A stretch of 64,000 nucleotides of DNA from a virus. Below the pieces are notes generated by a model. That model saw only the letters and a program-made list of their open reading frames with translations, was not told the origin of the DNA and searched no databases. The stretch covers positions 1 to 64,000 of IMG/VR virus record IMGVR_UViG_3300027861_000001. One strand, given 5' to 3'. Of the stretch, positions 10,624-62,929 are shown piece after piece. The position numbers and the translations under genes are program-made. How positions within the stretch are numbered: position 1 is the stretch's first letter; each line of letters begins with the position of its first letter.

Positions 10624-10851
10624 ATGCCAACTACTGGTAAATATTCACTGAAGGATTATAAATGTACTCGGTGTGGAAGGATAGAAAAACACGGCACAAA
10701 TCACTGGGGTGAAATCTATCCTAGATGTAGTGGCTGTTCTTTGAAACATCCCCTTGACCCTAATGTTGTGTGGGAATGCCTTGAACAGATGCCTGAAGGA
10801 TACACTAAACCTGAACAGTGGCAAAAGGTAAGGCTTGGTGACATTAGTTAG
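10624..10851 (+). CDS. zinc-ribbon protein
   Basis: CTRC...CSGC; AGGAGG RBS. Confidence 0.6.
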   Translation: MPTTGKYSLKDYKCTRCGRIEKHGTNHWGEIYPRCSGCSLKHPLDPNVVWECLEQMPEGYTKPEQWQKVRLGDIS

Positions 10852-11092
10852 TTGTATAACACCAAAACCTAGAAGGGCATTCATAACACTTATCTAACAC
10901 CGGTTGCAAATTCCTATGTTTATAACACCACTCAAAAGTATCAGTGTTATTACAAACATCACAGTGCCATTTACCATATCTACCTAGGTTATAAGCTTCA
11001 CGCCATAATACATTTTTGTATTCAGCATACGGCATCACATTACCACAAGTTAGACACACTACCTTCAAGTCTTCACTAAGACGATCAACCAT
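10844..11092 (-). CDS. CxxCxxRFxC(W)T-family protein (Zn ribbon + tag)
   Basis: Ends CYECPSRFWCYTTN. Confidence 0.75.
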   Translation of the reverse strand: MVDRLSEDLKVVCLTCGNVMPYAEYKNVLWREAYNLGRYGKWHCDVCNNTDTFEWCYKHRNLQPVLDKCYECPSRFWCYTTN

Positions 11093-11320
11093 TCAACTTG
11101 TCCAACACGCAAATCTTTGTCTACACTTCCCACACTTACCTCTTGCCGCTTGTTCGTGCCTAATTGTCATACACCTAACTATACTTCTACATTTACACTT
11201 GTCGCAGGCAGTAATTCCCGCACTTGTAGACGTGGATGATAGTTCCCATACGTCTACATAATGAAATCGTGACTCTCCACAGTCTGCACAAACATAACTC
11301 GTAGGGTATAAATTATCCAT
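11093..11320 (-). CDS. CWT-family protein (Zn ribbon + tag)
   Basis: Ends CGKCRQRFACWTS; start moved to ATG 11320. Confidence 0.75.
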   Translation of the reverse strand: MDNLYPTSYVCADCGESRFHYVDVWELSSTSTSAGITACDKCKCRSIVRCMTIRHEQAARGKCGKCRQRFACWTS

Positions 11321-11321
11321 T

Positions 11322-11537
11322 TTAATTTGTCCAGCACCTGTACCTTTCGTTACACAAATCACATTTACCCCTTGCCATTTGTTCGTCTTTAATTAAGTGG
11401 CACCACTCTAAATTTTGGCTACCACAAGAAGGGCAAGAATAATCGTTTTTGTGATAAGTTAGATACTCTCTATATGTTAGATGTTCTCCGCACACAGAGC
11501 AAGCCACTGACCACAAATCTAGATAGTTTATTGCCAT
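11322..11537 (-). CDS. CWT-family protein (Zn ribbon + tag)
   Basis: Ends CDLCNERYRCWTN; paralog of both downstream neighbours. Confidence 0.75.
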   Translation of the reverse strand: MAINYLDLWSVACSVCGEHLTYREYLTYHKNDYSCPSCGSQNLEWCHLIKDEQMARGKCDLCNERYRCWTN

Positions 11538-11798
11538 TTCTAAAAATATTTTGCCTTTTTAAGCAAATCTCCCCATAAAATACTACTGTTTTGAAGCTAA
11601 ACCACAACCAGAAATAGGAAAATAATAGGTATTAAATGGCTATTTTTTACCCTTTTTTTCCTCTTTTTTGACACTTTTTACCCATTTAATTCCAATTAAA
11701 TTCATCAAAAAATACTTCATAAGCTACAGTACCACGTACCAGTTTAGGTGTTGATATGTCTATATATCCAATGCCATTCTCCTCGCAAAACTTTTTAA

Positions 11799-12182
11799 CT
11801 ATGTCTGACTTGGTTGTTCTGGGTTTCCTCCATTCCATCTCCATAATTTTCTCCTTAATCTTTCTTTCCAAGAATATTTAATGGCTACTATATGTATGAA
11901 TCTCCATGTTCCAATTTTGAATATGTCCTCATTTTCTACGGCATATTCAATAGTATCTACCTTTCTCCAATACCATTCAAAGTGTTCAAAGTCTTCGGTT
12001 AGCCTAGTGTCCTTTATTTTGACAGCACCACTCTTTATTAACTGTTTAGCGTAGGCTCTAGAATAACCTATTGATTCCATAACATCTACCATATTCAAGG
12101 TTAAAAAGTCACTGTAATAAAAATCACAGTGATGATAGAACTGCATAAAACCGTATCCTTTGGGTGCTTTTTGTTGTGCCAT
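11799..12182 (-). CDS. S4-like RNA-binding domain protein
   Basis: IGYSRAYAKQLIKSGAVKIKD and IFKIGTWRFIHI resemble the S4 domain of TyrRS; start at the TAATG overlap. Confidence 0.55.
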   Translation of the reverse strand: MAQQKAPKGYGFMQFYHHCDFYYSDFLTLNMVDVMESIGYSRAYAKQLIKSGAVKIKDTRLTEDFEHFEWYWRKVDTIEYAVENEDIFKIGTWRFIHIVAIKYSWKERLRRKLWRWNGGNPEQPSQT

Positions 12183-12459
12183 TATTTTACATTTACTCCG
12201 TGAGTAGTACATATAAACTTATGTTGGCAGGAGTTACATTTAGTGTTACACAAAATAATAGAAGTGGTTTGTACATAAAGAATCATACGATCACAAGCAA
12301 CAGTGGGTTCTAATGCAGTAATGTTAGTTCCATCAAACTCACGTGGAGTCATCACACATTATAATGCTTAAAAAGAAGCTCATCAATATCGCGTAGACTT
12401 GCCGTGGCTCTATCACTATATATCAATACAACAATATCGCCTTCTTTAAATTTAGACAC
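12182..12459 (-). pseudogene. frameshifted CWT-family gene
   Basis: GTG-SKFKEGDIVVL... in one frame and ...CNTKCNSCQHKFICTTHGVNVK* in another; one base missing near 12360. Confidence 0.7.
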
Positions 12460-12706
12460 CCATCTTTACTCCCATTGTCATACATCTAAACCTGTGCTGG
12501 CATTCTTTGCAGTTGGGTACACATTTAAGTAAAGTTGATTTTGTATACGTGTATGCTTCCCAATCTTCTTTACCAGCTCGAACTAACTTATAACTGAAAA
12601 TCTTAAAAACTTTAGCTTTAGTTCCTATATATTGTTCCGTATCTTTTGAATCATATACGTTAATAGTAGTTATGACAACAGTATCGCCAACTTTTAATTC
12701 ACTCAT
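12452..12706 (-). CDS. CWT-family protein (KOW/SH3-like + tag)
   Basis: LKVGDTV N-terminus; CKECQHRFRCMT. Confidence 0.75.
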   Translation of the reverse strand: MSELKVGDTVVITTINVYDSKDTEQYIGTKAKVFKIFSYKLVRAGKEDWEAYTYTKSTLLKCVPNCKECQHRFRCMTMGVKMGV

Positions 12707-13037
12707 CTATTTTTACTCCATGTGTAATACAAATAAACCTGTTATGGCACTCCTTACAAACCTTTTCGCAAAGGATTACAGATGTTTTTAAAACAACAAA
12801 ACTTCGCAGAGCTATAGCAACATCATGTTTTGCATCTGTTCTGAAAATCTTATCAATCCAACCTCGACGATGATGGCCGTAGATGCTTTTATTCATTATA
12901 ATAAGATAGCTACCAAGGTCACGAATAACAACATAGTGTCCGGCTAAACTAATACTCTTGTATCTACCGATTTTTCTTTCTGTAAACATGTCGTAATGCA
13001 GCAAAATTACAGTGTCTTTCTCCTTTATCTCTGTCAT
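12699..13037 (-). CDS. CWT-family protein
   Basis: CKECHNRFICITHGVK. Confidence 0.75.
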   Translation of the reverse strand: MTEIKEKDTVILLHYDMFTERKIGRYKSISLAGHYVVIRDLGSYLIIMNKSIYGHHRRGWIDKIFRTDAKHDVAIALRSFVVLKTSVILCEKVCKECHNRFICITHGVKIDE

Positions 13038-13297
13038 TTCTTCCTGTTCTTCCTTTTAACAGCCTCTATCATCTCGTCTACTGTAGTTGCGACACTTATT
13101 TTAGCTTTCTTAACAGCATCTTCAAATGACATACCTTCTATCTCTTTGAAGTGGGTATAATAACACCCCCACGCTTCTTTCTGACCGTCAAACCCACCAG
13201 AGAATACAGACTCGTAGTGTGCCTTGCACAGAGGTAACCTACCTAAAGGCTGTAGGTTCTCAATTACTTCTTCTTCACAGTAAATACATTTTTTCAT
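13034..13297 (-). CDS. hypothetical protein
   Basis: ATGA-coupled to the upstream gene; CIYC...CKAH. Confidence 0.6.
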   Translation of the reverse strand: MKKCIYCEEEVIENLQPLGRLPLCKAHYESVFSGGFDGQKEAWGCYYTHFKEIEGMSFEDAVKKAKISVATTVDEMIEAVKRKNRKK

Positions 13298-13509
13298 GAC
13301 GTACAACACCTAAATCTTTCTTCGCAAGTTTCACAAGCTTTTAAATGCCCAAACATTAGTCTTTTTATAACAAAATCAAGACACTCACTACAATTTTCAC
13401 CTATGTTTTCACAGAAGTCATCCATATTATCTGCAAATGATGGACAAGGCATTGCTTGTGCTAGACTATCCCTTTCCATAATAGAATAAACAATTTCTAA
13501 ACATTTCAT
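13294..13509 (-). CDS. CWT-family protein
   Basis: Ends CETCEERFRCCTS. Confidence 0.7.
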   Translation of the reverse strand: MKCLEIVYSIMERDSLAQAMPCPSFADNMDDFCENIGENCSECLDFVIKRLMFGHLKACETCEERFRCCTS

Positions 13510-13928
13510 TATTCAGTCCAACATTGAAAACGACGCTTACAGTTCTCACATAAATTTAAAGAATTATCAATTTCAAAATCATTCTTCCATCTAATAACAT
13601 AATATTCCTTTCCGGTTACGTTTGCTCTAAAGCTATTAATTACATAACTTTTATCGGTTCGGTGAGCAACAATTTTTCCATAAAGGCAACTAAAATAGGG
13701 ATGTTTGAGCTTAACAATAGTTTCATTTTCTACCGCAGCAGACAAAATTGATTCTTCAATAAATCTCTTAAGATCACTTGGGTGTATATTATACCCATCA
13801 CTCTCTATAGAAGAAATGAGTGGTGAATATCTTTTCTTGTTAGGTTTTGGTGATATTATATCAGCGTGCCATCCACCTATATAATACATCCACTCTTGCC
13901 CATTAATGTGTAACTTTCTATACTTCAT
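13509..13928 (-). CDS. CWT-family protein
   Basis: Ends CENCKRRFQCWTE. Confidence 0.75.
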   Translation of the reverse strand: MKYRKLHINGQEWMYYIGGWHADIISPKPNKKRYSPLISSIESDGYNIHPSDLKRFIEESILSAAVENETIVKLKHPYFSCLYGKIVAHRTDKSYVINSFRANVTGKEYYVIRWKNDFEIDNSLNLCENCKRRFQCWTE

Positions 13929-14276
13929 TTAGCTTGTCCAACATTGAAATCTAAAGTAGCATACGGCACAAAGGTCTGGTGGGTCGTCTTTTTCTGGATA
14001 TATTTTCTCCAATTCTTTGTAGTATACTTCATAAGATGGATAGGAACCTTTAGCCATTGCATTACAATATACTCCACACTCTTTAAAAATGGGACATGTT
14101 TTACAAGTATTTAGGTTACTTGGTTTTGTTGTGTTTATTGTGTTTAACCAATAGTAACAATATATATTAACAGCACACTTATCAATTATAAATTTCAAAC
14201 AAGGGTTATTCTTTCCTTCAGATAATAGTTTTTGGTTTCGTCGCTCTATACGAGCCATTATCTCGTCTTGATTCAT
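13929..14276 (-). CDS. CWT-family protein, tandem paralog
   Basis: Ends YPEKDDPPDLCAVCYFRFQCWTS. Confidence 0.75.
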   Translation of the reverse strand: MNQDEIMARIERRNQKLLSEGKNNPCLKFIIDKCAVNIYCYYWLNTINTTKPSNLNTCKTCPIFKECGVYCNAMAKGSYPSYEVYYKELEKIYPEKDDPPDLCAVCYFRFQCWTS

Positions 14277-14635
14277 GATGTTACACACTTAAATCTAAAG
14301 TAACAAACAGCGCACAAGTCCGTCGGATCATCTTTCTCTGGATAGTTTTCTTCTAAAACAGTATAAAACTTTAATGAACCTTCTTCATCAGTGACATGAT
14401 CTTCACAATACATATCACATGCATACTTAATGGGGCACCTAATACATCTAACCTCACCATTATTTACTGCAACAAAATACTCACAAAACACAAAATCATA
14501 CGTGTTTGCTACGTTAGTCATCATGTCTACACAATGGTTGTGGGTATTAGTAGCCATACATTTTTGGTTGTTTCGTTCTATACGAATCATAATTTCTTCT
14601 TGACTCATGGTGTTGGTGCCTATCAAATAATTCAT
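14273..14635 (-). CDS. CWT-family protein, tandem paralog
   Basis: Ends YPEKDDPTDLCAVCYFRFKCVTS. Confidence 0.75.
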   Translation of the reverse strand: MNYLIGTNTMSQEEIMIRIERNNQKCMATNTHNHCVDMMTNVANTYDFVFCEYFVAVNNGEVRCIRCPIKYACDMYCEDHVTDEEGSLKFYTVLEENYPEKDDPTDLCAVCYFRFKCVTS

Positions 14636-17096: not shown

Positions 17097-17462
17097 ATGA
17101 GTTGGTTGTCTTTTAAAGAGTTACAAATTGTTGGAAAAGTAAATGATAGGGTTATAATTACTGCAAGTAATTATTCCACAACCTGCCCTTGTCCTATTTG
17201 CAAATCACTTTCAGAACATGTTACCAAACTAATAATTGAGTCTTTTGAGATTGGTCTAAATGAGTTAATGGTGCATCTTAAGGTTAATAAGCTAGAAGGA
17301 AACCCTACTTTTGACGAAAATTACATTTCGTTATCGTTGGACGCCGCTCGTTGTTGCGAGGCAGATATAAAGTTTCTTATTTGTAATAACTATTGTGGTT
17401 GTTGTAAAGCAAGGTTTCTTTGTAAAACAACAAGTGACTTTTTTTGGACGGGGGAAGAATAA
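17097..17462 (+). CDS. CWT-family protein (variant)
   Basis: CGCCKARFLCKTT. Confidence 0.6.
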   Translation: MSWLSFKELQIVGKVNDRVIITASNYSTTCPCPICKSLSEHVTKLIIESFEIGLNELMVHLKVNKLEGNPTFDENYISLSLDAARCCEADIKFLICNNYCGCCKARFLCKTTSDFFWTGEE

Positions 17463-24973: not shown

Positions 24974-25249
24974 ATGAAACTAAGAACAGGGCAGTGTGTA
25001 AAAGTTACAGAAATTAAATATCTTACCTACAATGCACTTGCTGATACACGCACCAAAGAAAAGTTTGCGTGGGCTATAGGAAGATTAGGTAGGATTAAAA
25101 CCTCTCTACGTAACGATTGGTACGAAGTAAATGTAGAAAAAGAAGGATATCCATCGCCAATCAACATAAACTTAAGTTCAGAAGAATTTGAGGTTATGGA
25201 AGAAGATTGTAATAGTTGCAAAATAAGATTCAAATGTTGGACTGAATAA
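24974..25249 (+). CDS. CWT-family protein (SH3-like 'QIKY' subgroup)
   Basis: Ends CNSCKIRFKCWTE. Confidence 0.8.
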   Translation: MKLRTGQCVKVTEIKYLTYNALADTRTKEKFAWAIGRLGRIKTSLRNDWYEVNVEKEGYPSPININLSSEEFEVMEEDCNSCKIRFKCWTE

Positions 25250-25539
25250 TGAAATACGAAATTGGTAGTTGTGTAAAAATAGTACAAATAAAATATAAAG
25301 ATTATGATACTTTAGTTGACGATGAAACAATAAAAAGGTACTTACATTTCGTAGGTAAGGTGGGCAAAATTACTGACCATCTTAGATTGAACTGGTTTCA
25401 GATATCTTTTGTGGAACCAATTAAAGTAAACGAGTATATACACAACATGCTACGGGTTCATCCAGAAGAAATAAGACTAACATCAAAAGAAGATTGTAAT
25501 AATTGTTCAATTCGTTATAAATGTTGGACTGAAAAGTAG
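25249..25539 (+). CDS. CWT-family protein ('QIKY' subgroup)
   Basis: Ends CNNCSIRYKCWTEK. Confidence 0.8.
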   Translation: MKYEIGSCVKIVQIKYKDYDTLVDDETIKRYLHFVGKVGKITDHLRLNWFQISFVEPIKVNEYIHNMLRVHPEEIRLTSKEDCNNCSIRYKCWTEK

Positions 25540-25814: not shown

Positions 25815-26069
25815 TGAGCAGAGCCTTAGTTACTGCGGTGTATTATGAAGTAAAGTATGTTGTTGACAAACTGTTAACAAAAGATCAAACTGAAAGAGTG
25901 TTGAATCTGTATTGCGTATCAGAAGTTAAGACTGTAGCATTTAGTACATATATTACTTTTAAACTTGATACTTCTTTAACCACCAAGCCAGAATATTGGA
26001 AGGTTGGTGGTTTAACAGGTGTTCGAAATGACATAGAGTCTATAGTAAATGAAAAACAGGAGGATAATA

Positions 26070-27717: not shown

Positions 27718-27840
27718 CTGATGACGAAGAAATTCCCAGAAAATACAGAGTAATTTTAGCAGTAATTTTTGTTTATGTGATAATGGCTCCTGCTTCTCTG
27801 TTTGCATTCTTGGGAATAATAAAATTAATACTTGGTTAAA

Positions 27841-37703: not shown

Positions 37704-37724
37704 ATCAATAAAGGAGAGAGAATA

Positions 37725-44250: not shown

Positions 44251-44264
44251 AAAGGAGAAAGTAA

Positions 44265-44588: not shown

Positions 44589-44589
44589 C

Positions 44590-44847: not shown

Positions 44848-44856
44848 GAGAACGAA

Positions 44857-45183: not shown

Positions 45184-45198
45184 AAAAGGAGTAAAATA

Positions 45199-45558: not shown

Positions 45559-45569
45559 AGGAGTAAGTC

Positions 45570-48953: not shown

Positions 48954-49244
48954 AATGCACGAAATATATACTCTTACTACTATCAGAAATAAAGCTTGGG
49001 ACACTGACACACGATGTGTTGGATGGTTCCCAAACTACGAAGATGCCGAATCAACAATAATTAGGTCTGGTGAACTATTGAATGAAGCTGGTTATTATGA
49101 ATATGCTGTCATAGAATGTATTAAGGCAGGTATCTACCAATACGACGATAACCCAGCTTGGTTTGCTTATAACTATAACCTTGAAACTTATGGAAAAATA
49201 GAAAGACCAGAAGACTTTGAACATGTTTGCGGGTTTGGAATAGG

Positions 49245-49520
49245 ATGAAAAACCATAAAGTGCTGTGTACCTACACTAAGGATGGTAGTTATTACTACAT
49301 GCTCTGGGATGAGGACGAACGTCGATTAAAGAAGTATTCACACGATAGGTATCCTTTGGATATGGTTGATAGTCTATTCAACAACACTCTTTATTATACG
49401 TATAGCCAACTAGAGTATATGAATATTCGTTACACAGAATGGATAAACGGTGGAGAAGATTTAGAACCAGAAAATTGTGACGCTTGTAAGTATAGATTCA
49501 TATGTTGGACTGAGGAATGA
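49245..49520 (+). CDS. CWT-family protein
   Basis: Ends CDACKYRFICWTEE. Confidence 0.75.
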   Translation: MKNHKVLCTYTKDGSYYYMLWDEDERRLKKYSHDRYPLDMVDSLFNNTLYYTYSQLEYMNIRYTEWINGGEDLEPENCDACKYRFICWTEE

Positions 49521-49837
49521 GGGTATTAAACCAAACTAAATATTCAAGGTTCGTATGTTACTACGACGACTGTAATAGTTGTAAAATAAGATATAAGTGT
49601 TGGACTGGGGATATCACCGCATACGGCACCCTATATTACAAAATAAAAATAGAAGCATATGCTTTCTTTAGAGAAAAGTACGGTGCTGAAATAGACGACT
49701 ATGCTATTAGCGAAGCTTTTGAAGGTAAAAAAAGTAACCTTTTGAGCTTTTTTATTACAGGAGACCTTGATAGTACTGTTATTGCTTGTGAAGTGTTTCA
49801 CAGCAAAGAATGGAAAAGTTTTAGAGAAGGAGAATAA
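49517..49837 (+). CDS. CWT-family protein (N-terminal motif)
   Basis: CNSCKIRYKCWTG. Confidence 0.7.
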   Translation: MRVLNQTKYSRFVCYYDDCNSCKIRYKCWTGDITAYGTLYYKIKIEAYAFFREKYGAEIDDYAISEAFEGKKSNLLSFFITGDLDSTVIACEVFHSKEWKSFREGE

Positions 49838-50098: not shown

Positions 50099-50398
50099 AT
50101 GTATAGAAAGATTGATAGAATACCTCCCAAAACATTTCCAAAAGACGATTGTGATACATGCTTAATTCGTTTTAAATGTCATTCTTCTGCTGTAGATGAA
50201 GCTGGTTGTCGATTATCAGCAGAAGAGGCAGCAGATAGAATCTTCAAAACTATAGATGAAAATGGTGCTTACTGGAATAATATTGTCTCAAGTATTTTGA
50301 GAGTAGTAGCTGAAGATTGTGGGTATGATGTTGCTAATCATGTAATAGATTTATGTGGATTAGAAAGTTTGGGTTGGTGTCATGAAAGTGGATTGTAG
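50099..50398 (+). CDS. CWT-family protein (N-terminal, variant)
   Basis: CDTCLIRFKCHSS. Confidence 0.65.
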   Translation: MYRKIDRIPPKTFPKDDCDTCLIRFKCHSSAVDEAGCRLSAEEAADRIFKTIDENGAYWNNIVSSILRVVAEDCGYDVANHVIDLCGLESLGWCHESGL

Positions 50399-50672
50399 TG
50401 TAAAACTTAATGCTAATTATCCAGTTGAGTATACTGTAGATGGAGATGAATTGCTTCCTAGTGATACGAAAATTATTGAGCAAAGCGCAGGTAAAGTGTA
50501 CAAAATATTAAATATAAAAGAGGATAATCCAGACGAGCAGTTTGGAATAATCTACGAGGTTGGACAACTTAATGAAATTCCCGTAGTTTTCGCATACAGA
50601 CTAGAAATAGACCCAGCCTATATGAACGTATGCAACATTTGTGAAGAAAGGTTTAAATGTTTCTGTGAATAA
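50382..50672 (+). CDS. CWT-family protein (variant)
   Basis: Ends CNICEERFKCFCE. Confidence 0.7.
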   Translation: MKVDCSVKLNANYPVEYTVDGDELLPSDTKIIEQSAGKVYKILNIKEDNPDEQFGIIYEVGQLNEIPVVFAYRLEIDPAYMNVCNICEERFKCFCE

Positions 50673-50782: not shown

Positions 50783-51598
50783 ATGAGTATTACGAAGTTT
50801 ATAGAGATACACGATTACAGCACCCTTAACAAATATATGGCAGCTTTCTCACTAAAACATATGGGACTGCTAATTATCGTGTCAAGGGCGGGACTTGGAA
50901 AATCATACCTAGTAGAACAGAATCTCGAAGTAGAGGCACCGTTGTTACTAAACTCACACGTAACCCCACTTCGATTCTACCAACTGTTATATGAAAGAAC
51001 CCAAGAAGAAAAAGATTGTTTACTAATTATTGACGAAGCAGAAATGATGTTTCAAAACCCAAAATTAAAAACAATGCTGAAAATAACCTGCGATACACGC
51101 GATGAAAAGATAATTAAATACGATTCTACTTCTCCGTTGTTAGCAGGAGTTCCTAAAGAATTTTCCACAGAGGTAAAAACTGTTCTTTTACTTAACACAT
51201 TAAACCCATCAGACGAGCACATAAAAGCCATAATGTCAAGAGGACATTTAGTTTATTTTAATCCTCCAGATGTAGAAATATTAAATTACTTAAAAGGGTG
51301 GGGAGAAGATAAGGAAGTTATAAAGTTTATTGGTGACTTTGCTTCACACTCAAAATCTCTCAACCTAAGAACTTATGTTAAAGCCGTAGAATCTAAGAAA
51401 GCTGGGTTAAATTGGGAACAAGAGGTAATAAACGAACTTGATCTAGATAATCGTTTTCTTGTTATAAGAAGTTTAATAAAAAATTACAAGACAGACAAAG
51501 AGCGAATAATTGGTTGGACTAAGATTACCAGAGAATCACGTGCTAACTACTTTCGTTGGAAAAAACTATACGACAACAAAAACAAGAGAGGTAATTAA
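50783..51598 (+). CDS. P-loop (AAA-like) ATPase with possible C-terminal HTH
   Basis: SRAGLGKS, LIIDEAE, AIMSR; C-terminal SRANYFRW. Confidence 0.7.
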   Translation: MSITKFIEIHDYSTLNKYMAAFSLKHMGLLIIVSRAGLGKSYLVEQNLEVEAPLLLNSHVTPLRFYQLLYERTQEEKDCLLIIDEAEMMFQNPKLKTMLKITCDTRDEKIIKYDSTSPLLAGVPKEFSTEVKTVLLLNTLNPSDEHIKAIMSRGHLVYFNPPDVEILNYLKGWGEDKEVIKFIGDFASHSKSLNLRTYVKAVESKKAGLNWEQEVINELDLDNRFLVIRSLIKNYKTDKERIIGWTKITRESRANYFRWKKLYDNKNKRGN

Positions 51599-52446
51599 TG
51601 GGTTATAGAGGAAGAGGAAGAAAGATTAGGAACCACGCCAGAGAAGGTGTAGGAGATTCCTATTGGTATAAGAATGCGATTAACGATTTTATGAACGATA
51701 TAAAGCATGAAAAGGCCTATTCTACTAGCTACGGACTTAAAGTTCATTGGGAGTCTCCAACACGGTTGGTGTATAACGGAAATCCCATTCTTGTAAAAGA
51801 CGAAGCTGGGCAAATATTCATAACCAACAAAATTACACATCTTGGTGGAGTAAGTAATGATATTCCTAGAACATACTCCGACGCTATAGAAATGGTTTGG
51901 AGAGAATTAGTAACAAAAGGAATAGATTATAAGGTAGTAAATGGTTGGGCATCTCTGAACAATGAGGTTGTTGATCCACCACCAACTCACAAAACGGTTG
52001 GCGGATTGATCAGAAGTTTTGGTAAATATACAACTGACCAACTAAATGAAAAATATTGTTGGTGTGGAACACCTCCAGAATATATTATTGAAACACCATT
52101 AAATTTACTGTGGAGAGCTAAAAGACCTATTAGTTATCTAAAAAAGGTTGATGGTAATTTAACTATGGCAGCTAGGTATCACAACATATATAAGTGCGAA
52201 GACAAAGATACTTATATGTGTGATGTGTGTCCTGCTAAGTTTCAATGTCTTACACAAACTGAAACCTACAAAGGAGAAATCTTTTATATTAATGTCGATG
52301 CTTTTGTAGACTTAGAAATATTTAAGCTATACCCAGCAATGAAAAATAGCTTGCCATGTAGTGTACTGCAAAGTTTTTCTAAGTTGGGAGACTTATCCTT
52401 GACCGTTGCTGAAAGAGAAGCTACAGCAGAGGGAACTGATGAGTAA
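51598..52446 (+). CDS. CWT-family protein (internal motif), paralog of 28780-29571
   Basis: CDVCPAKFQCLTQ; GWAS...THKTV. Confidence 0.7.
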   Translation: MGYRGRGRKIRNHAREGVGDSYWYKNAINDFMNDIKHEKAYSTSYGLKVHWESPTRLVYNGNPILVKDEAGQIFITNKITHLGGVSNDIPRTYSDAIEMVWRELVTKGIDYKVVNGWASLNNEVVDPPPTHKTVGGLIRSFGKYTTDQLNEKYCWCGTPPEYIIETPLNLLWRAKRPISYLKKVDGNLTMAARYHNIYKCEDKDTYMCDVCPAKFQCLTQTETYKGEIFYINVDAFVDLEIFKLYPAMKNSLPCSVLQSFSKLGDLSLTVAEREATAEGTDE

Positions 52447-53053
52447 AGCAACAGCCGCACTTTGTGATAAGTGTCCTCTAAATACAGAAGATGACACTGC
52501 TCTAAAGAATATTTTTGTTCCTAGTGAAATACACGACAAGTCTAGCATTATTCTTTTAGTTGAAGCCCCTGGATACTACGAGGCTAAGGCTGGAATTCCA
52601 TTGGTTGGACAGGCAGGTAATGACTTAATGGATGTAATTTATAACTTAGAGCTTAATCGTTCAGACTTCAACTTAGTAAACAGTGTAAGTTGTAGACCAA
52701 CAGCCATGAAGAACGAAAGAGTTATAAATAGAACACCGACGGACAAAGAAATCTATTGTTGCAATCAAAGATTGCTAGGTGAAATAAATAATATAGCTCC
52801 AGTGTCAATTGTTGCGATGGGTAAAGTACCTTACATTGCTTTAGGAGGAAGTAAGGAAGCTAAAGTAAAAGACATAGCAGGAACTACTTTTGATTTACAA
52901 GGTAATTATAAAGTGTTTGTTACTTACCATCCGGCAGCTATAGGTTATAACAAAAAAACACAGCTTGGAGAAATGATAAAGAAAAATATCTATGACCAAA
53001 TCTTAGCAGCAACTCTATTAAAACCAAAAGTAAAACAGTTTAGATTGCTATGA
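52439..53053 (+). CDS. family-4 uracil-DNA glycosylase (Fe-S)
   Basis: CDKCPL, EAPG..E, GQAG, NSVSCRP, NRTP, TYHPAA. Confidence 0.85.
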   Translation: MSKATAALCDKCPLNTEDDTALKNIFVPSEIHDKSSIILLVEAPGYYEAKAGIPLVGQAGNDLMDVIYNLELNRSDFNLVNSVSCRPTAMKNERVINRTPTDKEIYCCNQRLLGEINNIAPVSIVAMGKVPYIALGGSKEAKVKDIAGTTFDLQGNYKVFVTYHPAAIGYNKKTQLGEMIKKNIYDQILAATLLKPKVKQFRLL

Positions 53054-53277
53054 AAAAAGAGTTTAACGTTGGTGACAAGGTTTGTATGTTCCCTAACGAA
53101 ATGTCAGCTGCTGGTAAAAAGGTAGGAGTAGGTGTAGTAATAGACACTAAGTCATACCGAGCCGATTACCCATACGAAGTAAGAGGTACTGGTTTTGTTT
53201 GGTCATCAGAAGAATTAAACCTTTGTTTAGGAAATTGTGATACTTGCAAAGCTAGATTTGTTTGTTGGACGAGCTAA
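53050..53277 (+). CDS. CWT-family protein
   Basis: FNVGDKV; ends CDTCKARFVCWTS. Confidence 0.8.
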   Translation: MKKEFNVGDKVCMFPNEMSAAGKKVGVGVVIDTKSYRADYPYEVRGTGFVWSSEELNLCLGNCDTCKARFVCWTS

Positions 53278-53366
53278 ATGAAAAAGAAAAAATCAGTAAA
53301 AGATATAAAAAAGCAAAAGAAAACAAGAACCAAACGAAGAAGAAAGAATCGGTTAGGTGGAAAACG

Positions 53367-53681
53367 ATGACAGACGAAACCATTGCTGAGAAAACTAGAA
53401 TACTTACGTGTCAACTGGAATACAAAAATACTAAGTATTCTAAACCTTGTTTAACATGTAATGATAGGTTCAAATGCCATACAATGGTTGCGAAAGAGTT
53501 TGTAATGACAGAAATGTACTCAGGGTGGAAAGATCATTATATTGTAGCAGAAACTAAAGAAGAAGCACAGAACTGGTTCGATAAATTAGGATTTGAGTTG
53601 TTTGAAGAATATGGTGAATATAATCGTTTGGGTGACGAGTACGGTGAAAATACAGAGTGGAAAGAAATAGATTATAGATAA
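53367..53681 (+). CDS. CWT-family protein (internal motif)
   Basis: CLTCNDRFKCHTM; start uncertain. Confidence 0.6.
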   Translation: MTDETIAEKTRILTCQLEYKNTKYSKPCLTCNDRFKCHTMVAKEFVMTEMYSGWKDHYIVAETKEEAQNWFDKLGFELFEEYGEYNRLGDEYGENTEWKEIDYR

Positions 53682-53941: not shown

Positions 53942-54352
53942 ATGGTAGTTCAAACAGAGTGGATACGTACGCCTAAAGAGTTGAGAGAGGATGGGTACAA
54001 CGTATTGTTCTATAACATATCTGGTTTCATCAAAGTTTGTCTTATTAGGAAAGAAGGACAGAACTTGGCTCGCGGTATAGCTATCTGTTCTTATTTTGAC
54101 AAATATGATAAACTTGAGGGTGCTAAACAGGCATTCAATAGAGCAGTAGCTGCGTTGGATACTGGTATTGGTAGTGAACCAATTAATACTTTCGGGAGAA
54201 AAGGTAAACTCAAAAAGCGACTTTCTTTAGCAAATGACTTTTTCTTTTGGAAGTCTGAACCTAATCCATACCTAAAAACTGCACACGAACAAGAGCTGGT
54301 TGAGAGACGGTTATGGCGAATAGAAAAGCGGTTGCAAGCAAAAAAGAAATAA
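53942..54352 (+). CDS. phage-type hypothetical protein
   Basis: ARGIAICS..D.Y....G...A..RA; AGGAG RBS. Confidence 0.6.
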   Translation: MVVQTEWIRTPKELREDGYNVLFYNISGFIKVCLIRKEGQNLARGIAICSYFDKYDKLEGAKQAFNRAVAALDTGIGSEPINTFGRKGKLKKRLSLANDFFFWKSEPNPYLKTAHEQELVERRLWRIEKRLQAKKK

Positions 54353-54573
54353 GAAAGCCCACAGTTGGACAAACTCTTATAGTAATTGAAGGTAAGGCGG
54401 GTATACCTACCGGAGAACTGGCTCATTTTCGTGATTCTTACAAGCACAACGGTGTAACTCTCTGGGTTGTAGACGGTATAAAAAACGGAACTTCTTTCTT
54501 TTCTTGGAGATTTGTCATTTGTGAAAAACCTTGTGAAACTTGTAAAGAAAGATTTAGGTGTTGGACAGCATGA
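54313..54573 (+). CDS. CWT-family protein
   Basis: Ends CETCKERFRCWTA. Confidence 0.75.
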   Translation: MANRKAVASKKEIRKPTVGQTLIVIEGKAGIPTGELAHFRDSYKHNGVTLWVVDGIKNGTSFFSWRFVICEKPCETCKERFRCWTA

Positions 54574-55349: not shown

Positions 55350-55853
55350 ATGCAAGTTAGTATAAGAGCATATGGGTGGTTTTGTATTGCTTGTGACTGC
55401 CCAAAACCTGTAGAGAAAGTAAGAGTAGTCAAGGCACCAAATAAAGAATTTATAGGTGTAATTTGTAATGATTGTTCTACAGAACTACACGATTGTTTCT
55501 TATATAAAAAGGGTGTAGAGTGCGATAGCTGTAAAGACAGATTCCATTGCTTCACAATGTCAGGAGCTACTGTACCTAAACCTTTGGAAAATGTTAAAAG
55601 CCATGAAATACAAAGTATTGCTCCTATAAAAACCGACAATAAAAGCATGGGGATTAAATCGTACACAGGACATTATCACTATAAATTAGACCAATCTTAT
55701 TGTGCTTATCCATATAGAGACGACTGTAATCACAGTTGGATGAGAGCCAATTACAGTGGAACCTCTTATACACGGTGTGAATATATGGAATATGCTATTA
55801 AAGAAGAAAAGTGGTATTGTTTGTATGGAGAAACAGTAAGGGGCAACAGATAG
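55350..55853 (+). CDS. CWT-family protein (internal motif), Cys-rich
   Basis: CDSCKDRFHCFTM. Confidence 0.65.
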   Translation: MQVSIRAYGWFCIACDCPKPVEKVRVVKAPNKEFIGVICNDCSTELHDCFLYKKGVECDSCKDRFHCFTMSGATVPKPLENVKSHEIQSIAPIKTDNKSMGIKSYTGHYHYKLDQSYCAYPYRDDCNHSWMRANYSGTSYTRCEYMEYAIKEEKWYCLYGETVRGNR

Positions 55854-55967: not shown

Positions 55968-56402
55968 ATGGAAAACATGAGTAATAAATGTTACGAGTGT
56001 CAATATAGGAGAGACCTGCCAGGATCAGCACACTCAAAATGTGTTCATCCTAATCTTCCTAAAGTAGTGGCAGACAACCCTATGATGGAAATGTTTTCTA
56101 TTTTAGGTGGAGTAGGTAGAACATTGGTTACTGGTGGTAAAGAGATAGATTTAAAAACAGCCTTACCAGCAGTTTCTGAGTTTCTAATGGATTCAGACGA
56201 GACCTCAATAAAAGTAAAGGGACACGAACATGGAATTAAAAATGGTTGGTTCATGTTCCCATATAACTTTGACCCAACGTGGTTATTAGAGTGTGATGGT
56301 TTTGAGGGGTGTGAATCTTGTGAACATAGATTTATTTGTGCAACCGAGTCTCCTAAAAAATGTTATAAACAGAAAGGTATTACACCTAATGATGCACATT
56401 AA
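55968..56402 (+). CDS. CWT-family protein (near-C-terminal variant)
   Basis: CYEC...HGIKNGWFMFPYNFDPTW; CESCEHRFICATE. Confidence 0.7.
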   Translation: MENMSNKCYECQYRRDLPGSAHSKCVHPNLPKVVADNPMMEMFSILGGVGRTLVTGGKEIDLKTALPAVSEFLMDSDETSIKVKGHEHGIKNGWFMFPYNFDPTWLLECDGFEGCESCEHRFICATESPKKCYKQKGITPNDAH

Positions 56403-56622
56403 AGATATTGGTTATGAGGATGGATGGAAAGAAAGACGTATATCACGTGAATCAGAAGAAGAAAGATTCATGAGGAAATGTAAAGAAATTTCCACCAACA
56501 CAGAAAAGTGTGATAAATGTGAGTTTCGTTATAAGTGTTATACGCTAGAACATAAAGAAACAACTTTATTTGGTGAGGATTTAGGTGCTAAATATCAAAA
56601 AATACGTCACGTAAAGAAATAA
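56389..56622 (+). CDS. CWT-family protein (internal motif)
   Basis: CDKCEFRYKCYTL. Confidence 0.6.
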   Translation: MMHIKDIGYEDGWKERRISRESEEERFMRKCKEISTNTEKCDKCEFRYKCYTLEHKETTLFGEDLGAKYQKIRHVKK

Positions 56623-56636: not shown

Positions 56637-57134
56637 ATGAGAACTTTAATATCGGTGAACACGGTTGGTGGGAAAGAGCTTCTATCAAAGAGAAGTAAGC
56701 CAGTAAAGAAAGTAACTAAGGAAATAAGAAGCATAGTCGAAGACATGGTAAGAATCCGTGATGAAAGTCATGGAGAAGGTATAGCCGCTCCACAGGTAGG
56801 AGAATTGAAACGTATAATCGCATTGCGGTTAGGCTCGCGGGAAGTCATAGTAATAAATCCACGAATCGAAAGAAGGGATGCAGACACAGATGTAATTGAA
56901 GGTTGCTTAAGTGTTCCTTATTATTATTACACAGTAAGAAGACCTAATAGGTGTGCATTGATTGGAACTGACTTAGAGGGCAATGAAATAAGAATACAAT
57001 GTTATAATTCATTTCGCGCATCATTAGCTTGTCATGAAGTAGACCACTTAGACGGTATAACAATAGATAGAATAGGAATACAAGCACACGAAAAAGAACA
57101 AAAAGAGGAATCAAAACTTGCTTGGGCAGAATAG
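56637..57134 (+). CDS. def: peptide deformylase
   Basis: GEGIAAPQVG, EGCLS, HEVDHLDG. Confidence 0.92.
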   Translation: MRTLISVNTVGGKELLSKRSKPVKKVTKEIRSIVEDMVRIRDESHGEGIAAPQVGELKRIIALRLGSREVIVINPRIERRDADTDVIEGCLSVPYYYYTVRRPNRCALIGTDLEGNEIRIQCYNSFRASLACHEVDHLDGITIDRIGIQAHEKEQKEESKLAWAE

Positions 57135-57135
57135 T

Positions 57136-57453
57136 ATGATTGATCGTACCGGTTATGGTTTAGAGGACTTAAACACAGAAAGGTTTGAGAAAAGTAAAAA
57201 CCAACTTGATTTTTACTACCAAAAACTATCGTCTGGTGACAACTTTGTAGTTGTGGACAACGAAGGTGTAGACGTACCTAGTGGTACAGCTGGTAGTATA
57301 CTATATTTTAAGGGGAACGAGAATTGGGTTTGTGAGGTTAGATTGAATGAAGCTTCTGGACGCAAAGAAAGAGGTTTATTTTCTTGGCGCCTAGCTAAGT
57401 GTACAAAAGATTGTAATGCTTGTAATGCAAAGTTCTGGTGCTGGACAAACTGA
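57136..57453 (+). CDS. CWT-family protein
   Basis: Ends CNACNAKFWCWTN. Confidence 0.75.
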   Translation: MIDRTGYGLEDLNTERFEKSKNQLDFYYQKLSSGDNFVVVDNEGVDVPSGTAGSILYFKGNENWVCEVRLNEASGRKERGLFSWRLAKCTKDCNACNAKFWCWTN

Positions 57454-57704
57454 TGAAATTAGAGAAGGCTGAAAAAGTATTCATAACAGGAAAAACAGAA
57501 GATTGGTGTGATTGTGAGTCTTGCCAAGCACTTTTTGAGGAAGAAGTAATAAATAGACAAGCTATTGTAGCACACAGTAGAAAGTCTTTCATACTTAAGT
57601 TGTTGTCTGGTCGTAGTGTACATATTAATTCCGTAACATATATACAGTGCAAAACACAACCCTGCGACAAGTGTGAATTTAGGTATAAATGCTGGACTAG
57701 TTAA
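57453..57704 (+). CDS. CWT-family protein, paralog of 34545-34793
   Basis: Ends CDKCEFRYKCWTS. Confidence 0.8.
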   Translation: MKLEKAEKVFITGKTEDWCDCESCQALFEEEVINRQAIVAHSRKSFILKLLSGRSVHINSVTYIQCKTQPCDKCEFRYKCWTS

Positions 57705-61243: not shown

Positions 61244-61708
61244 TCAAATACTCTCCCATTTATCATCAAGCCACCGCTTACCAAACTTTTCTTCCATTAC
61301 AAACGCTAACCAAAGTTTCTCACCTGAATCGAATACATTTGTTGGAACACAAACATAAGCCTCATCACAGTACTGCTCATTCATCCACGCAACGAAACAC
61401 AAGAAAGCTGCTTCGATGTAGAAGGAAGAATACACTATCTCATCCTGTAATGCATAATATTGTCCAATAATTTCCTGTAGTTGGTCTTGCCGTGGAAGCC
61501 AAATATGGTACGCATCGTCCGGTATTACTTGTGCAAAACAACTTCCATTAACTATAGTTTTACAACTGCACACTGGACAACCTGTATAATCAAGGTTTGT
61601 TACTTCAAGGCATTTCGTGCATCCGTGGAAATTTCTACTCTCGATTACATACTTCTCTTGTACCTCAGCACAGTTGCACATCTTAATATAAGTTTTTGAA
61701 TTATCCAT
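61244..61708 (-). CDS. hypothetical protein
   Basis: YIKMC...WLPRQDQLQ...LWLAFVM. Confidence 0.6.
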   Translation of the reverse strand: MDNSKTYIKMCNCAEVQEKYVIESRNFHGCTKCLEVTNLDYTGCPVCSCKTIVNGSCFAQVIPDDAYHIWLPRQDQLQEIIGQYYALQDEIVYSSFYIEAAFLCFVAWMNEQYCDEAYVCVPTNVFDSGEKLWLAFVMEEKFGKRWLDDKWESI

Positions 61709-61711
61709 TAC

Positions 61712-61978
61712 TTATCTCCATTCTACTTTTACACCAAAAACCTTAGACATTAACCAGTATCTAACCCTGTTTCTTTTACTCCTTTCTATGTGATAACAAA
61801 ACTTTAAAGTACCAAAATTATCACCAAAAGAAACTTCAATATTGTGATTTTCTAAATTAACCGACAGTGATCCCCAGTGATCATCTTGCTCACAAATATT
61901 TTCTACTTGTGTGAAGCACCTAAACCTATCTATACACGTATCACACTTGTTCTTTTTTTTTCTCCAAGGCTTTCTCAT
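61712..61978 (-). CDS. CWT-family protein (N-terminal motif)
   Basis: CDTCIDRFRCFTQ. Confidence 0.65.
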   Translation of the reverse strand: MRKPWRKKKNKCDTCIDRFRCFTQVENICEQDDHWGSLSVNLENHNIEVSFGDNFGTLKFCYHIERSKRNRVRYWLMSKVFGVKVEWR

Positions 61979-62262
61979 AATCCCGCTTCTTTAACTTTGC
62001 GAACTGCTTCCTCTTCTGTTAGTTTTCCTTTCTCAACATCTCGAATCAAAGGATAGAGAACCCAGTGAATATCGACACACACAGCTAATAAGTCGTTTAT
62101 CTCGTCATACAACTCCTTAATGTTAGTAGACTCAGGTCGATCTGGATGCCAATTAAAGTAACCAAACCGTCTAGCTTTGCCAAGAGCTTTGAACACTTCC
62201 CCTACTTCTTCCAATAACTTGTCCTGAAGTCCACCTATATTCTTATAATCTTTATGACTCAT
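61975..62262 (-). CDS. MazG-like nucleotide pyrophosphohydrolase
   Basis: LLEEVGEV...ELYDEINDLL (EExxE...ExxD). Confidence 0.7.
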   Translation of the reverse strand: MSHKDYKNIGGLQDKLLEEVGEVFKALGKARRFGYFNWHPDRPESTNIKELYDEINDLLAVCVDIHWVLYPLIRDVEKGKLTEEEAVRKVKEAGL

Positions 62263-62282
62263 AATCTACTCCATTTCTTTTG

Positions 62283-62364
62283 CGGAAGGTGAGAGATTCG
62301 AACTCCCAAGGCTTTTATACCTGCTGTTTTCAAGACAGTTTACTTCACCAATAGCAGACCTTCC
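62283..62364 (-). tRNA. tRNA-Ser(UGA)
   Basis: GGAAGGT/ACCTTCC-G acceptor stem, loop CTTGAAA, long variable arm, GTTCGAATC; followed by CAA. Confidence 0.85.
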
Positions 62365-62367
62365 ATC

Positions 62368-62652
62368 TTAACTCGTCCAACAGACAAATCTTGCAATACA
62401 ATCTTCACAATCAGGACACGGTAGTTTATCTATCTTTTCATGAAAATGCCTTAGCACTTCATACTTTATACCATTCTTCACTTCTTCATGAGTTTCGTAA
62501 CAATTGTTACAATCCCAGCATTCGTGTATCCAAGAGTCATAATCAACTATATCCCAAGAATTTAATTCGTTGTGTCTGTCTTTAGAAGTATAAACCCAAC
62601 CCCAACACACCCAAACTGAACCACAATAGTCGCATGTTCTTAAATTATTCAT
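62368..62652 (-). CDS. CWT-family protein
   Basis: Ends CEDCIARFVCWTS; start refined to 62652. Confidence 0.75.
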   Translation of the reverse strand: MNNLRTCDYCGSVWVCWGWVYTSKDRHNELNSWDIVDYDSWIHECWDCNNCYETHEEVKNGIKYEVLRHFHEKIDKLPCPDCEDCIARFVCWTS

Positions 62653-62929
62653 AATATAACATATCCAAGCTGTCAGTCCAGCACGGAAACTTATATTTAC
62701 ATTCGTCACAATTATAAGGTACTATTTCCCACGGATACATCCACACACTAAAGAAGAATGATGGATTGCTGGTTGTAATACTTACCAAATACAATTCACC
62801 TCTTGGTGCTTTAGTTTCAGCTGTTACGATTCTTACATCAAACTCTCTACTTGTAAATGTACCCTGCCAAGTCTCGTCCAAATGAACTCCATTTGGTAAA
62901 CAGACCTTGTCGTCAACTTCAAACTTCAT
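62645..62929 (-). CDS. CWT-family protein
   Basis: FEVDDKV; CDECKYKFPCWTDS. Confidence 0.75.
   Translation of the reverse strand: MKFEVDDKVCLPNGVHLDETWQGTFTSREFDVRIVTAETKAPRGELYLVSITTSNPSFFFSVWMYPWEIVPYNCDECKYKFPCWTDSLDMLYYE

Follow-up and report, generated by a model that had tools for sequence, protein, structure and literature searches.

A twelve-residue, three-cysteine signature on about a quarter of the genes of a marine phage and its predicted portable metal site

The stretch analyzed here (the window) is the first 64 kb of the 149,053-bp virus record IMGVR_UViG_3300027861_000001, and it encodes dozens of small proteins that share a 12-residue signature with three cysteines, C-x2-C-x2-[RK]-[FY]-x-C-[WYF]-T. 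Such proteins, mostly unrelated to one another, account for roughly one gene in four both here and in uncultured relatives of the phage. This motif is a trait of one clade of ~135- to 153-kb marine phages, is essentially absent from cellular genomes, and is undescribed in domain databases. Together with a fourth cysteine of the same chain, it is predicted to form a portable intramolecular Cys4 metal staple, C-Xn-C-X2-C-X5-C, with an iron-sulfur (Fe-S) center favored over zinc, a reading that we give an even chance.

The signature and its fourth cysteine

A strict six-frame search with the regular expression C..C..[RK][FYWH].C.[TS] found 53 in-frame copies in the window, all within 10853-62710 and all inside open reading frames (ORFs), and 20 mononucleotide shuffles of the window gave 0 matches. 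Three degenerate copies (26148, 31777, and 50631) bring the total in 10844-62929 to 56, of which 34 end no more than 3 residues from the stop codon and 22 are internal or N terminal. The same counts had been given in an earlier note on this DNA, made by a model from the sequence alone, and the three dense arrays that it described were borne out; they comprise 10 (10844-14635), 12 (27832-31911), and 8 (33226-35333) carriers. Genome-wide there are 68 carriers among ~277 ORFs, about a quarter of the genes, and a single one falls outside the region from 10 to 88 kb, the nonstructural half of the genome. The motif occupies the extreme C terminus in 39 of these 68; in the 194 distinct carriers of related phages (34 multicopy loci; 262 carriers in all), it is N terminal in 62, internal in 88, and C terminal in 44. 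Two motifs in one protein occurred in 0 cases among all carriers.

At the conserved cysteines, TGT makes up 77 to 84% of the codons (77% genome-wide), and at the conserved arginine, AGA makes up 49% (49% genome-wide); both Phe codons and all four Thr codons are used at the conserved positions. This agreement with genome-wide codon use indicates that selection acts on the peptide, as the earlier note had supposed, and a nucleotide-level function for the whole motif was ruled out on the same ground. A CaaX-box reading of the C-W-T-x-stop ending was likewise ruled out by the variable tail lengths in the relatives and the prokaryotic host.

At least four cysteines are present in 68/68 carriers of this phage and in 194/194 carriers of its relatives. 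The earlier note had remarked that a fourth cysteine often lies 3 to 5 residues upstream; such a cysteine does exist, but the remark understated it, since it is present in all 68 at a variable distance. The extra cysteine lies 2 to 16 residues upstream, up to 79 residues upstream, or downstream, and the nearest upstream cysteine is within ~13 to 14 residues in 71% of carriers. Exactly four cysteines, the triad plus one, occur in ~30 of the 68 carriers (25 of the 58 that are gene called), and the cysteine counts of the 194 carriers in relatives show two peaks, one at 4 cysteines (64 proteins) and one at 8 (29 proteins). Among small noncarrier ORFs of this phage, 17% have no cysteine at all, and at this rate the chance of an extra cysteine in all 262 carriers is ~1e-21.

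The fourth cysteine is conserved within families and can change place. Six clade-wide orthologous families (families 4, 8, 9, 10, 11, and 12; 33 to 56% identity) have as invariant cysteine columns the triad and exactly one more, whereas the family with a SWIM finger has 3 + 4 and the family of 55350 has 3 x 4. In a subfamily designated A1, the fourth cysteine lies in the first strand in four paralogs, and the paralog at 33753-34019 has an arginine there and a cysteine at -4. Family 2 follows the same pattern: two of its members have no cysteine at column 94, where four others bear the fourth cysteine, and carry it at -4 instead. The four-cysteine rule, the invariant columns, and the relocation are together strong evidence for a predicted tetrahedral Cys4 site closed within a single chain.

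We infer metal binding, the identity of the metal, a role as a staple, and the timing and function of the carriers. The 12-residue signature would supply three quarters of an intramolecular four-cysteine metal site, with CxxC as a knuckle and R-F-x-C as a one-turn helix bearing the third ligand, while the aromatic residues and the arginine would pack around the metal center. The fourth cysteine would come from the protein body, either from nearby upstream or from a distant position, for example in the first beta-strand where the body is an SH3-like barrel. In this way a short segment would be pinned to the body, much as the “iron staple” does in Cas4/AddB/Dna2 nucleases. Its role would be to stabilize mini-proteins unable to fold alone and possibly to make them redox sensitive. 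The carriers, which lie in the nonstructural half of the genome, are probably early or host-takeover proteins.

Two further observations concern the surroundings of the motif. Small ORFs (up to 170 amino acids [aa]) of this phage are cysteine rich even without it (2.7% Cys versus 1.5% in large ORFs), and many of them have at least 4 cysteines, which suggests that the phage makes wide use of metal-stabilized mini-proteins. Tryptophan follows the third cysteine in 33/39 terminal copies of this phage versus 6/29 internal copies, a bias that is weak in the relatives (12/33 terminal versus 34/161 others). At junctions after C-terminal copies, for example 25243-25252, 30481-30490, and 34013-34022, the ATG of the next gene abuts or overlaps the stop codon of the carrier. 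In 24 junctions, the Trp-Thr codons (TGG-AC) put a GGA 7 to 8 nucleotides ahead of the next start codon; in 31/36 such junctions no Shine-Dalgarno-like element other than this GGA is present, and those without it have a full AGGAG(G). The bias could reflect dual coding of a minimal ribosome-binding site, inheritance through tandem duplication, or both.

Likeness to Cas4-domain exonucleases and other cysteine sites

The IMG/VR scan also found the identical signature at the C terminus of a 285-aa protein on unrelated small marine-phage contigs. This protein matches PHROG 1990, “Cas4-domain exonuclease” (E 6e-35), and weakly the Pfam PDDEXK_1 model up to its last position, which is the third cysteine. 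Its family has 4109 marine-phage members at E<=1e-5; in the 117 members examined, the triad has the form C-x-F-C-x-[YF]-R-[FY]-x-C-W, the arginine being present in 111/117 and the tryptophan in 117/117, and the fourth cysteine of the family is N terminal and invariant. The AlphaFold2 (AF2) model of the exonuclease, with a predicted local distance difference test (pLDDT) score of 92.5, presents the triad region as a knuckle and a one-turn helix. Its best structural match is the [4Fe-4S] Cas4 protein SSO0001 (4IC1; probability 1.00), followed by Cas4-Cas1-Cas2, AdnAB, AddAB, and Dna2, while the family profile gave no match to PDB sequences. In hhalign, a 22-column carrier profile lands exactly on the exonuclease triad (94.6%, E 7e-8).

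As in the carriers, the PHROG 1990 exonucleases have R and F/Y before the third cysteine and W after it. Because these residues are common to the carriers and to a Cas4-type Fe-S pocket, they point to a function of the conserved nonligand residues in the putative metal site itself and not in contact with an outside partner. The arrangement C-Xn-C-X2-C-X5-C is the [4Fe-4S] ligand set in Dna2/AddB (PMC3439918). The carriers have in common with the iron staple of Cas4/AddB/Dna2 the triad spacing C-X2-C-X5-C, invariant in all 68 + 194 of them, and a fourth cysteine in the same chain. They are nonetheless not members of the Cas4/AddB/Dna2 group, since the PD-(D/E)XK nuclease core is absent (no PF12705 or PF01930 match in the 68 carriers). 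They differ further in having SH3-like barrels, zinc ribbons, a SWIM finger, or orphan domains of 48 to 282 aa as bodies, a fourth cysteine that is usually only 1 to 13 residues upstream, a threonine after the aromatic residue, and dozens of copies per genome.

The Fe-S cluster loop of endonuclease III/MutY, which closes an HhH-GPD glycosylase, has the form C-Xn-C-X2-C-X5-C with n = 6, a spacing matched only by some carrier families, such as the SWIM family of 41300-41662. The N terminus of NUBP1/Nbp35 binds a [4Fe-4S] cluster through the same arrangement with n = 13 (PMC8007109), and RseC does so with n = 5 (PMC11729352). All three are short self-contained four-cysteine stretches with the same last three spacings as the carriers, and in RseC, as in the carriers, the last three cysteines are the conserved ones. 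The likeness ends at the cysteines; HhH-GPD and P-loop domains are absent from the carriers.

The WhiB-like (Wbl) proteins of Actinobacteria and actinophages bind a [4Fe-4S] cluster through Cys-X14-22-Cys-X2-Cys-X5-Cys (PMC5462746). They too are small (80 to 120 aa) and phage borne, with one cluster and the triad spacing of the carriers, and they would be a functional analogy if the carriers bind Fe-S. The carriers differ from them in giving no PF02467 match at E<=0.01 (68 carriers), in lacking the G-[VI]-W-G-G turn and having other conserved residues, and in having the nearest upstream cysteine within 14 residues in 71% of cases. They also belong to a low-GC marine phage with tens of copies per genome, as opposed to one or two.

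The earlier note had compared the spacing with SPASM-type ligation. SPASM/Twitch domains (C-X2-C-X5-C-X3-C) do have the C-X2-C-X5-C core of the motif, but the comparison fails beyond it: the C-X3-C extension is present in only 1/262 carriers, and there is no PF04055 or PF13186 match. C2H2 zinc knuckles resemble the motif in their CxxC knuckle with a conserved Phe three residues on and in stabilizing very small domains. The motif differs from zinc ribbons and C2H2 fingers in having no second CxxC knuckle and no His pair, and its third ligand comes two residues after the Phe.

No Pfam, PHROG, or NCBIfam model covers the motif in 10 carriers searched with all three, nor does any Pfam model in all 68, in agreement with the earlier note, which had recognized no named family in it. 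The motif profile gave nothing below E=1 against PDB sequences; its best matches (E>1) are 8 residues of C2H2 zinc-finger knuckles with C-x2-C-x3-F spacing. A word-index homolog search, whether started from one carrier or from the alignment of all 68, retrieved only proteins of this phage, an ESM Atlas search with the motif segment gave no usable match, and the string CxxCxxRF or variants of it were not found in the literature.

Distribution, protein bodies, and competing explanations

The phage genome has direct terminal repeats, 37% GC, and a CheckV completeness of 100%. Its DNA was matched by only one sequencing run, a seawater metagenome that is possibly the source sample, and no RNA run was listed for it. 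It encodes TerL, portal, and head genes; PolA, DnaB, an intein-containing primase, class II ribonucleotide reductase, RtcB, CCA-adding enzyme, and PurA; and three radical S-adenosylmethionine (SAM) enzymes, a UDG-family protein, and a MoxR-type AAA+ protein with a VWA/metallopeptidase partner. No close cultured relative was found by blastn and tblastn against cultured phages, and in 50,697 phage records TerL had one match, at 22% identity. Scanning IMG/VR with a DNA pattern retrieved at least 10 related contigs from six samples. Five near-complete relatives of 134 to 153 kb have a TerL 70 to 73% identical to that of this phage, and each has 27 to 45 pattern matches versus 0 with a reversed-pattern control. 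The same type of scan over 185,579 species genomes gave 31 single matches, where chance alone would produce ~17, and almost every match was out of frame or fell in a short segment; the one plausible cellular-genome carrier is on a 2.6-kb contig of a Rhodobacteraceae metagenome-assembled genome.

The bodies to which the motif is attached are diverse, as the earlier note had said. With the motif masked, BLAST placed the 262 carriers in 172 clusters and the 68 of this phage in 60, and the detectable paralog groups among carriers have 5, 3, 2, and 2 members. Carrier lengths range from 48 to 282 aa. Pfam recognized zinc ribbons and a SWIM finger in some of the 68 bodies only; the zinc-ribbon matches lie in the bodies and not on the motif, and none of the Pfam-recognizable enzymes in the window carries it, as had also been claimed. 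On 10 long carriers of relatives, Pfam gave only subthreshold kinase-like and DUF6205 matches. The AF2 model of subfamily A1 is an SH3/KOW-like barrel (pLDDT of about 90) that Foldseek matched to SH3 domains, eL21, NusG/Spt5 KOW, and NdhS. A hidden Markov model (HMM) of A1 searched against 1.84 billion representatives returned 5 self matches, 1 paralog, and, from a 1-kb contig of metagenome sample 3300037067, a single protein of 69 aa. This nearly self-only result shows the bodies to be near-orphans and is uninformative on the spread of the motif.

It is very unlikely that the carriers are an ordinary paralog expansion, in which one small ancestor diverged until only metal ligands survived and nothing was portable. 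The tandem arrays, the few paralog groups, an SH3-like N-terminal pattern common to ~20 carriers of this phage, and near-identical stop/start junctions after the motif in arrays would all fit such a history. Duplication accounts for the arrays but not for the combinations of motif and body: the motif stands at the N terminus, in the middle, or at the C terminus of zinc-ribbon, SWIM, SH3-like, and long orphan bodies that fall into many masked clusters. In relatives it also occurs on members of a separate leader-bearing family found upstream of a SPASM enzyme, and a 295-aa carrier (L060:8145-9032) has a body homolog without it (L012:1374-2750). Besides being duplicated in tandem, the module has been shuffled between bodies. 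The evidence thus fits a self-contained portable module that would have spread by both routes onto dozens of small, fast-evolving proteins.

The earlier note had proposed a portable metal-binding tag that docks or sorts effectors on one common partner, for instance for capsid loading, oligomerization, or handling by an AAA+/VWA machine. The portable peptide-level module and the predicted metal site stand; the docking function, with the metal only shaping the tag, is improbable. In its favor, R, F/Y, W/Y/F, and T are conserved beyond the needs of ligand geometry, the motif is so often at the extreme C terminus in this phage, AF2 leaves it as a free tail on the SH3-like body, and a MoxR-type AAA+ and VWA/metallopeptidase pair lies among carriers at 36464-39269. 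The tag idea is unsupported because each carrier has its own fourth cysteine, relocating in a compensatory way, which would close the site in one chain, and because R, F/Y, and W match the triad of Cas4-domain exonucleases, enzymes in which no such shared partner is expected. Nor is the motif a C-terminal signal, since 150/194 copies in relatives are internal or N terminal; just one carrier lies outside the nonstructural half of the genome. Hardly credible is the proposal that the carriers are radical SAM substrates akin to ribosomally synthesized and posttranslationally modified peptides (RiPPs), with thioether-cross-linked cysteines that bind no metal. The phage does have three radical SAM genes, including the one at 45570-46589 with its SPASM domain, and in relatives some leader-family members preceding the SPASM enzyme carry the motif. 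Thioethers, however, need no fourth cysteine, yet 262/262 carriers have one, with counts peaking at multiples of four, and the motif is missing from all seven genes of the leader family that adjoin the SPASM enzyme in this phage. Unlike RiPP precursors, the carriers are dispersed over 10 to 88 kb (~80 kb) on both strands, not beside a maturase, and are 48 to 282 aa long with folded bodies.

Within the Cys4 staple, the metal is somewhat probably a [4Fe-4S] cluster, and structural zinc is a lesser but substantial possibility. Three features speak for Fe-S: the cysteine spacing, a fourth ligand that is single but wanders, and a signature that matches that of Cas4. The same anatomy could instead hold structural Zn(II) as an unusual zinc knuckle that stabilizes mini-proteins, with no cluster and no redox role, an explanation that we consider plausible while placing it clearly below an even chance. 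Small Cys4 phage proteins are usually zinc proteins, and the best, nonsignificant PDB matches are the C2H2 knuckles. Against zinc, C-X2-C-X5-C with a single variable fourth cysteine is typical of [4Fe-4S], whereas zinc ribbons have two CxxC knuckles, and the nonligand residues match the triad of the Cas4-domain exonucleases, whose solved relatives bind Fe-S (PMC3439918).

Several points count against the Fe-S staple. Sequence cannot settle Fe-S versus Zn, and the first eight motif residues resemble a C2H2 zinc-finger knuckle (E>1). Many carriers hold ordinary zinc ribbons, so the lineage does use Zn(Cys)4 sites, and canonical ribbons or the SWIM finger occur in several carriers. The IscU and IscA scaffold families of Fe-S assembly were searched for in the phage and are absent, and in the iron-poor seawater where the phage lives, making ~68 Fe-S proteins in each infection would draw on scarce iron. 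AF2, run on a five-sequence alignment, folded the SH3-like body of A1 with confidence but left the motif unplaced (pLDDT 38 to 46), which speaks neither for nor against the predicted contact between the triad and the distal cysteine. The Cas4-like PDDEXK_1 nuclease of the phage itself (82538-83281, or L109:18538-19281; E 1e-25) has a plain C-x2-C-x5-C triad without R-F-x-C-W-T, and the signature of the carriers is therefore not simply traceable to it. Even cysteine counts would also permit disulfides, but 6 is rarer than 8 and there are no signal peptides.

A broader interpretation, which we regard as tentative and rather doubtful, is that this phage clade made the Cas4-type [4Fe-4S] triad a free-standing module of ~20 residues on about a quarter of its proteins. 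These would be dozens of mini iron-sulfur proteins, WhiB analogues outside Actinobacteria, acting in host takeover with their folding or activity tied to host Fe-S supply, oxygen, or redox. If the carriers bind metal as proposed, one undescribed mini-module would underlie ~25% of the genes of a phage lineage, and the triad signature plus one more cysteine would, if true, be an annotation rule for hundreds of orphan ORFs in marine viromes. If the metal is Fe-S, the infected cell would be loaded with dozens of cluster-dependent small proteins, which bears on marine iron economy, on the ways in which phages sense the redox state of the host, and on the means by which very small proteins become stable and evolve fast. 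If it is zinc, the module would be a new type of zinc knuckle expanded in one lineage, a useful and less surprising result. For protein engineering, the module offers a candidate for a compact staple that binds metal.

Carrier genes of the window and neighboring genes

The carriers in the window are listed below by coordinates and strand, with length, position of the motif, and cysteines; extra cysteines are those beyond the triad, and an offset of -4 means a cysteine four residues before the triad.

10844-11092, minus: 82 aa, motif 10853-10888, C terminal; zinc-ribbon body; 8 Cys, nearest extra -13
11093-11362, minus: 89 aa, motif 11099-11134, C terminal; 10 Cys, nearest extra -13
11322-11537, minus: 71 aa, motif 11328-11363, C terminal; zinc-ribbon body; 8 Cys, nearest extra -13
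12182-12355, minus: 57 aa, motif 12203-12238, 6-residue tail; 5 Cys, extra -4
12452-12706, minus: 84 aa, motif 12476-12511, 7-residue tail; SH3-like N terminus; exactly 4 Cys, fourth -4
12699-13037, minus: 112 aa, motif 12723-12758, 7-residue tail; exactly 4 Cys, fourth -4
13294-13509, minus: 71 aa, motif 13300-13335, C terminal; 9 Cys
13509-13928, minus: 139 aa, motif 13515-13550, C terminal; exactly 4 Cys, fourth -46
13929-14288, minus: 119 aa, motif 13935-13970, C terminal; paralog of 14273-14635; 11 Cys
14273-14635, minus: 120 aa, motif 14279-14314, C terminal; 10 Cys
17097-17462, plus: 121 aa, motif 17394-17429, 10-residue tail; 10 Cys, extra -4
24974-25249, plus: 91 aa, motif 25208-25243, C terminal; SH3-like barrel (folded); exactly 4 Cys, fourth is residue 8 in the first beta-strand
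25249-25539, plus: 96 aa, motif 25495-25530, C terminal; same subfamily as 24974-25249; exactly 4 Cys, fourth in the first strand
26049-26366, plus: 105 aa, degenerate motif 26148-26183 (last Thr replaced), internal; exactly 4 Cys, fourth -8
27832-28110, plus: 92 aa, motif 28069-28104, C terminal; remote A1-subfamily member; 5 Cys
28095-28370, plus: 91 aa, motif 28329-28364, C terminal; zinc-ribbon body; 8 Cys (ribbon 4, extra 1, triad 3)
28355-28591, plus: 78 aa, motif 28550-28585, C terminal; SH3-like N terminus; exactly 4 Cys, fourth -3
28780-29571, plus: 263 aa, motif 29380-29415, internal; orphan body related to 51598-52446, no Pfam match; 7 Cys
29745-29993, plus: 82 aa, motif 29856-29891, internal; 5 Cys, extra -7
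29990-30229, plus: 79 aa, motif 30188-30223, C terminal; tandem paralog trio; 5 Cys
30230-30487, plus: 85 aa, motif 30446-30481, C terminal; tandem paralog trio; exactly 4 Cys, fourth -44
30488-30742, plus: 84 aa, motif 30701-30736, C terminal; tandem paralog trio; exactly 4 Cys, fourth -42
30743-31051, plus: 102 aa, motif 31010-31045, C terminal; exactly 4 Cys, fourth -4
31052-31333, plus: 93 aa, motif 31292-31327, C terminal; 8 Cys
31318-31542, plus: 74 aa, motif 31501-31536, C terminal; exactly 4 Cys, fourth -3
31543-31911, plus: 122 aa, degenerate motif 31777-31812 (Arg replaced), internal; exactly 4 Cys
33226-33501, plus: 91 aa, motif 33460-33495, C terminal; zinc-ribbon body; 9 Cys
33486-33752, plus: 88 aa, motif 33711-33746, C terminal; A1 subfamily; Cys in the first strand
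33753-34019, plus: 88 aa, motif 33978-34013, C terminal; A1 subfamily; first-strand Cys replaced by Arg, new Cys -4
34004-34291, plus: 95 aa, motif 34250-34285, C terminal; exactly 4 Cys, fourth -45
34288-34545, plus: 85 aa, motif 34504-34539, C terminal; 6 Cys
34530-34793, plus: 87 aa, motif 34752-34787, C terminal; 7 Cys, extra -3
34794-35084, plus: 96 aa, motif 35043-35078, C terminal; A1 subfamily; exactly 4 Cys, fourth in the first strand
35085-35333, plus: 82 aa, motif 35208-35243, internal; exactly 4 Cys
39269-39565, plus: 98 aa, motif 39332-39367, N terminal; exactly 4 Cys, fourth -5
39568-39858, plus: 96 aa, motif 39619-39654, N terminal; 6 Cys, extra -7
39996-40223, plus: 75 aa, motif 40182-40217, C terminal; exactly 4 Cys, fourth -5
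40848-41315, plus: longest frame 155 aa, true start probably further downstream, motif 41223-41258; 5 Cys
41300-41662, plus: 120 aa, SWIM finger and motif 41570-41605; clade-wide; 7 invariant Cys (SWIM 3 + 4); C-x6-C-x2-C-x5-C
41659-41982, plus: 107 aa, motif 41941-41976, C terminal; 7 Cys
49227-49520, plus: 97 aa, motif 49476-49511, C terminal; exactly 4 Cys, fourth -70
49517-49837, plus: 106 aa, motif 49571-49606, N terminal; 5 Cys, extra -5
50099-50398, plus: 99 aa, motif 50150-50185, N terminal; orthologs in relatives; 7 Cys, extra downstream
50382-50672, plus: 96 aa, degenerate motif 50631-50666 (Thr replaced by Cys), C terminal; 5 Cys
51598-52446, plus: 282 aa, motif 52219-52254, internal; orphan body; 7 Cys, extra -8
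53050-53277, plus: 75 aa, motif 53236-53271, C terminal; SH3-like N terminus; 5 Cys, extra -4
53262-53681, plus: 139 aa, motif 53448-53483, internal; exactly 4 Cys, fourth -13
54313-54573, plus: 86 aa, motif 54532-54567, C terminal; exactly 4 Cys, fourth -4
55350-55853, plus: 167 aa, motif 55521-55556, internal; clade-wide; 12 invariant Cys columns (3 x 4)
55968-56402, plus: 144 aa, motif 56310-56345, internal; orthologs in relatives; 8 Cys
56293-56622, plus: longest frame 109 aa, overlaps 55968-56402, true start probably further downstream, motif 56509-56544; 4 Cys, fourth -10
57118-57453, plus: 111 aa, motif 57412-57447, C terminal; 5 Cys, extra -4
57438-57704, plus: 88 aa, motif 57663-57698, C terminal; 7 Cys, extra -5
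61712-61978, minus: 88 aa, motif 61910-61945, N terminal; 5 Cys, extra downstream
62368-62709, minus: 113 aa, motif 62374-62409, C terminal; 11 Cys, extra -3
62645-62929, minus: 94 aa, motif 62675-62710, 9-residue tail; exactly 4 Cys, fourth -64

Two carrier families have additional features. The ortholog of the SWIM-plus-motif protein at 41300-41662 in one relative (L072:8763-10196) is 477 aa long and has an intein-like insert inside the SWIM finger, which suggests that this protein is important and has a conserved site. The insert resembles the intein of the primase of this phage, a DnaG-type enzyme at genome positions 91985-94021 (L110:7985-10021) whose intein bears a LAGLIDADG homing endonuclease. 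A conserved carrier family in relatives (L097:2099-2608, L028:2937-3395, and L005 from position 52 onward) starts with a T-G-R-L-S...P-N-x-Q-N-like stretch followed by the cysteine module. This stretch resembles a signature of family A DNA polymerases (E 0.004 in a pairwise comparison with PolA of this phage), and the family may be a polymerase fragment or a split gene.

At 42822-46589, seven tandem genes with a conserved N-terminal leader of ~16 residues precede the radical SAM/SPASM gene (45570-46589). Among the leader-family members of relatives (L014:1190-1672, L014:810-1199, and L082:9412-9792), some carry the triad motif, and one ortholog has lost the second cysteine. The radical SAM/SPASM gene is directly followed by a 490-aa ORF with 28 cysteines and no Pfam match (46607-48079) and then by a 303-aa ORF with a weak M42-peptidase-like match. 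Outside the window, a 316-aa ORF at genome positions 77135-78085 (L109:13135-14085) matches the Pfam family DruA, a Druantia defense protein, with an E of 7e-28.

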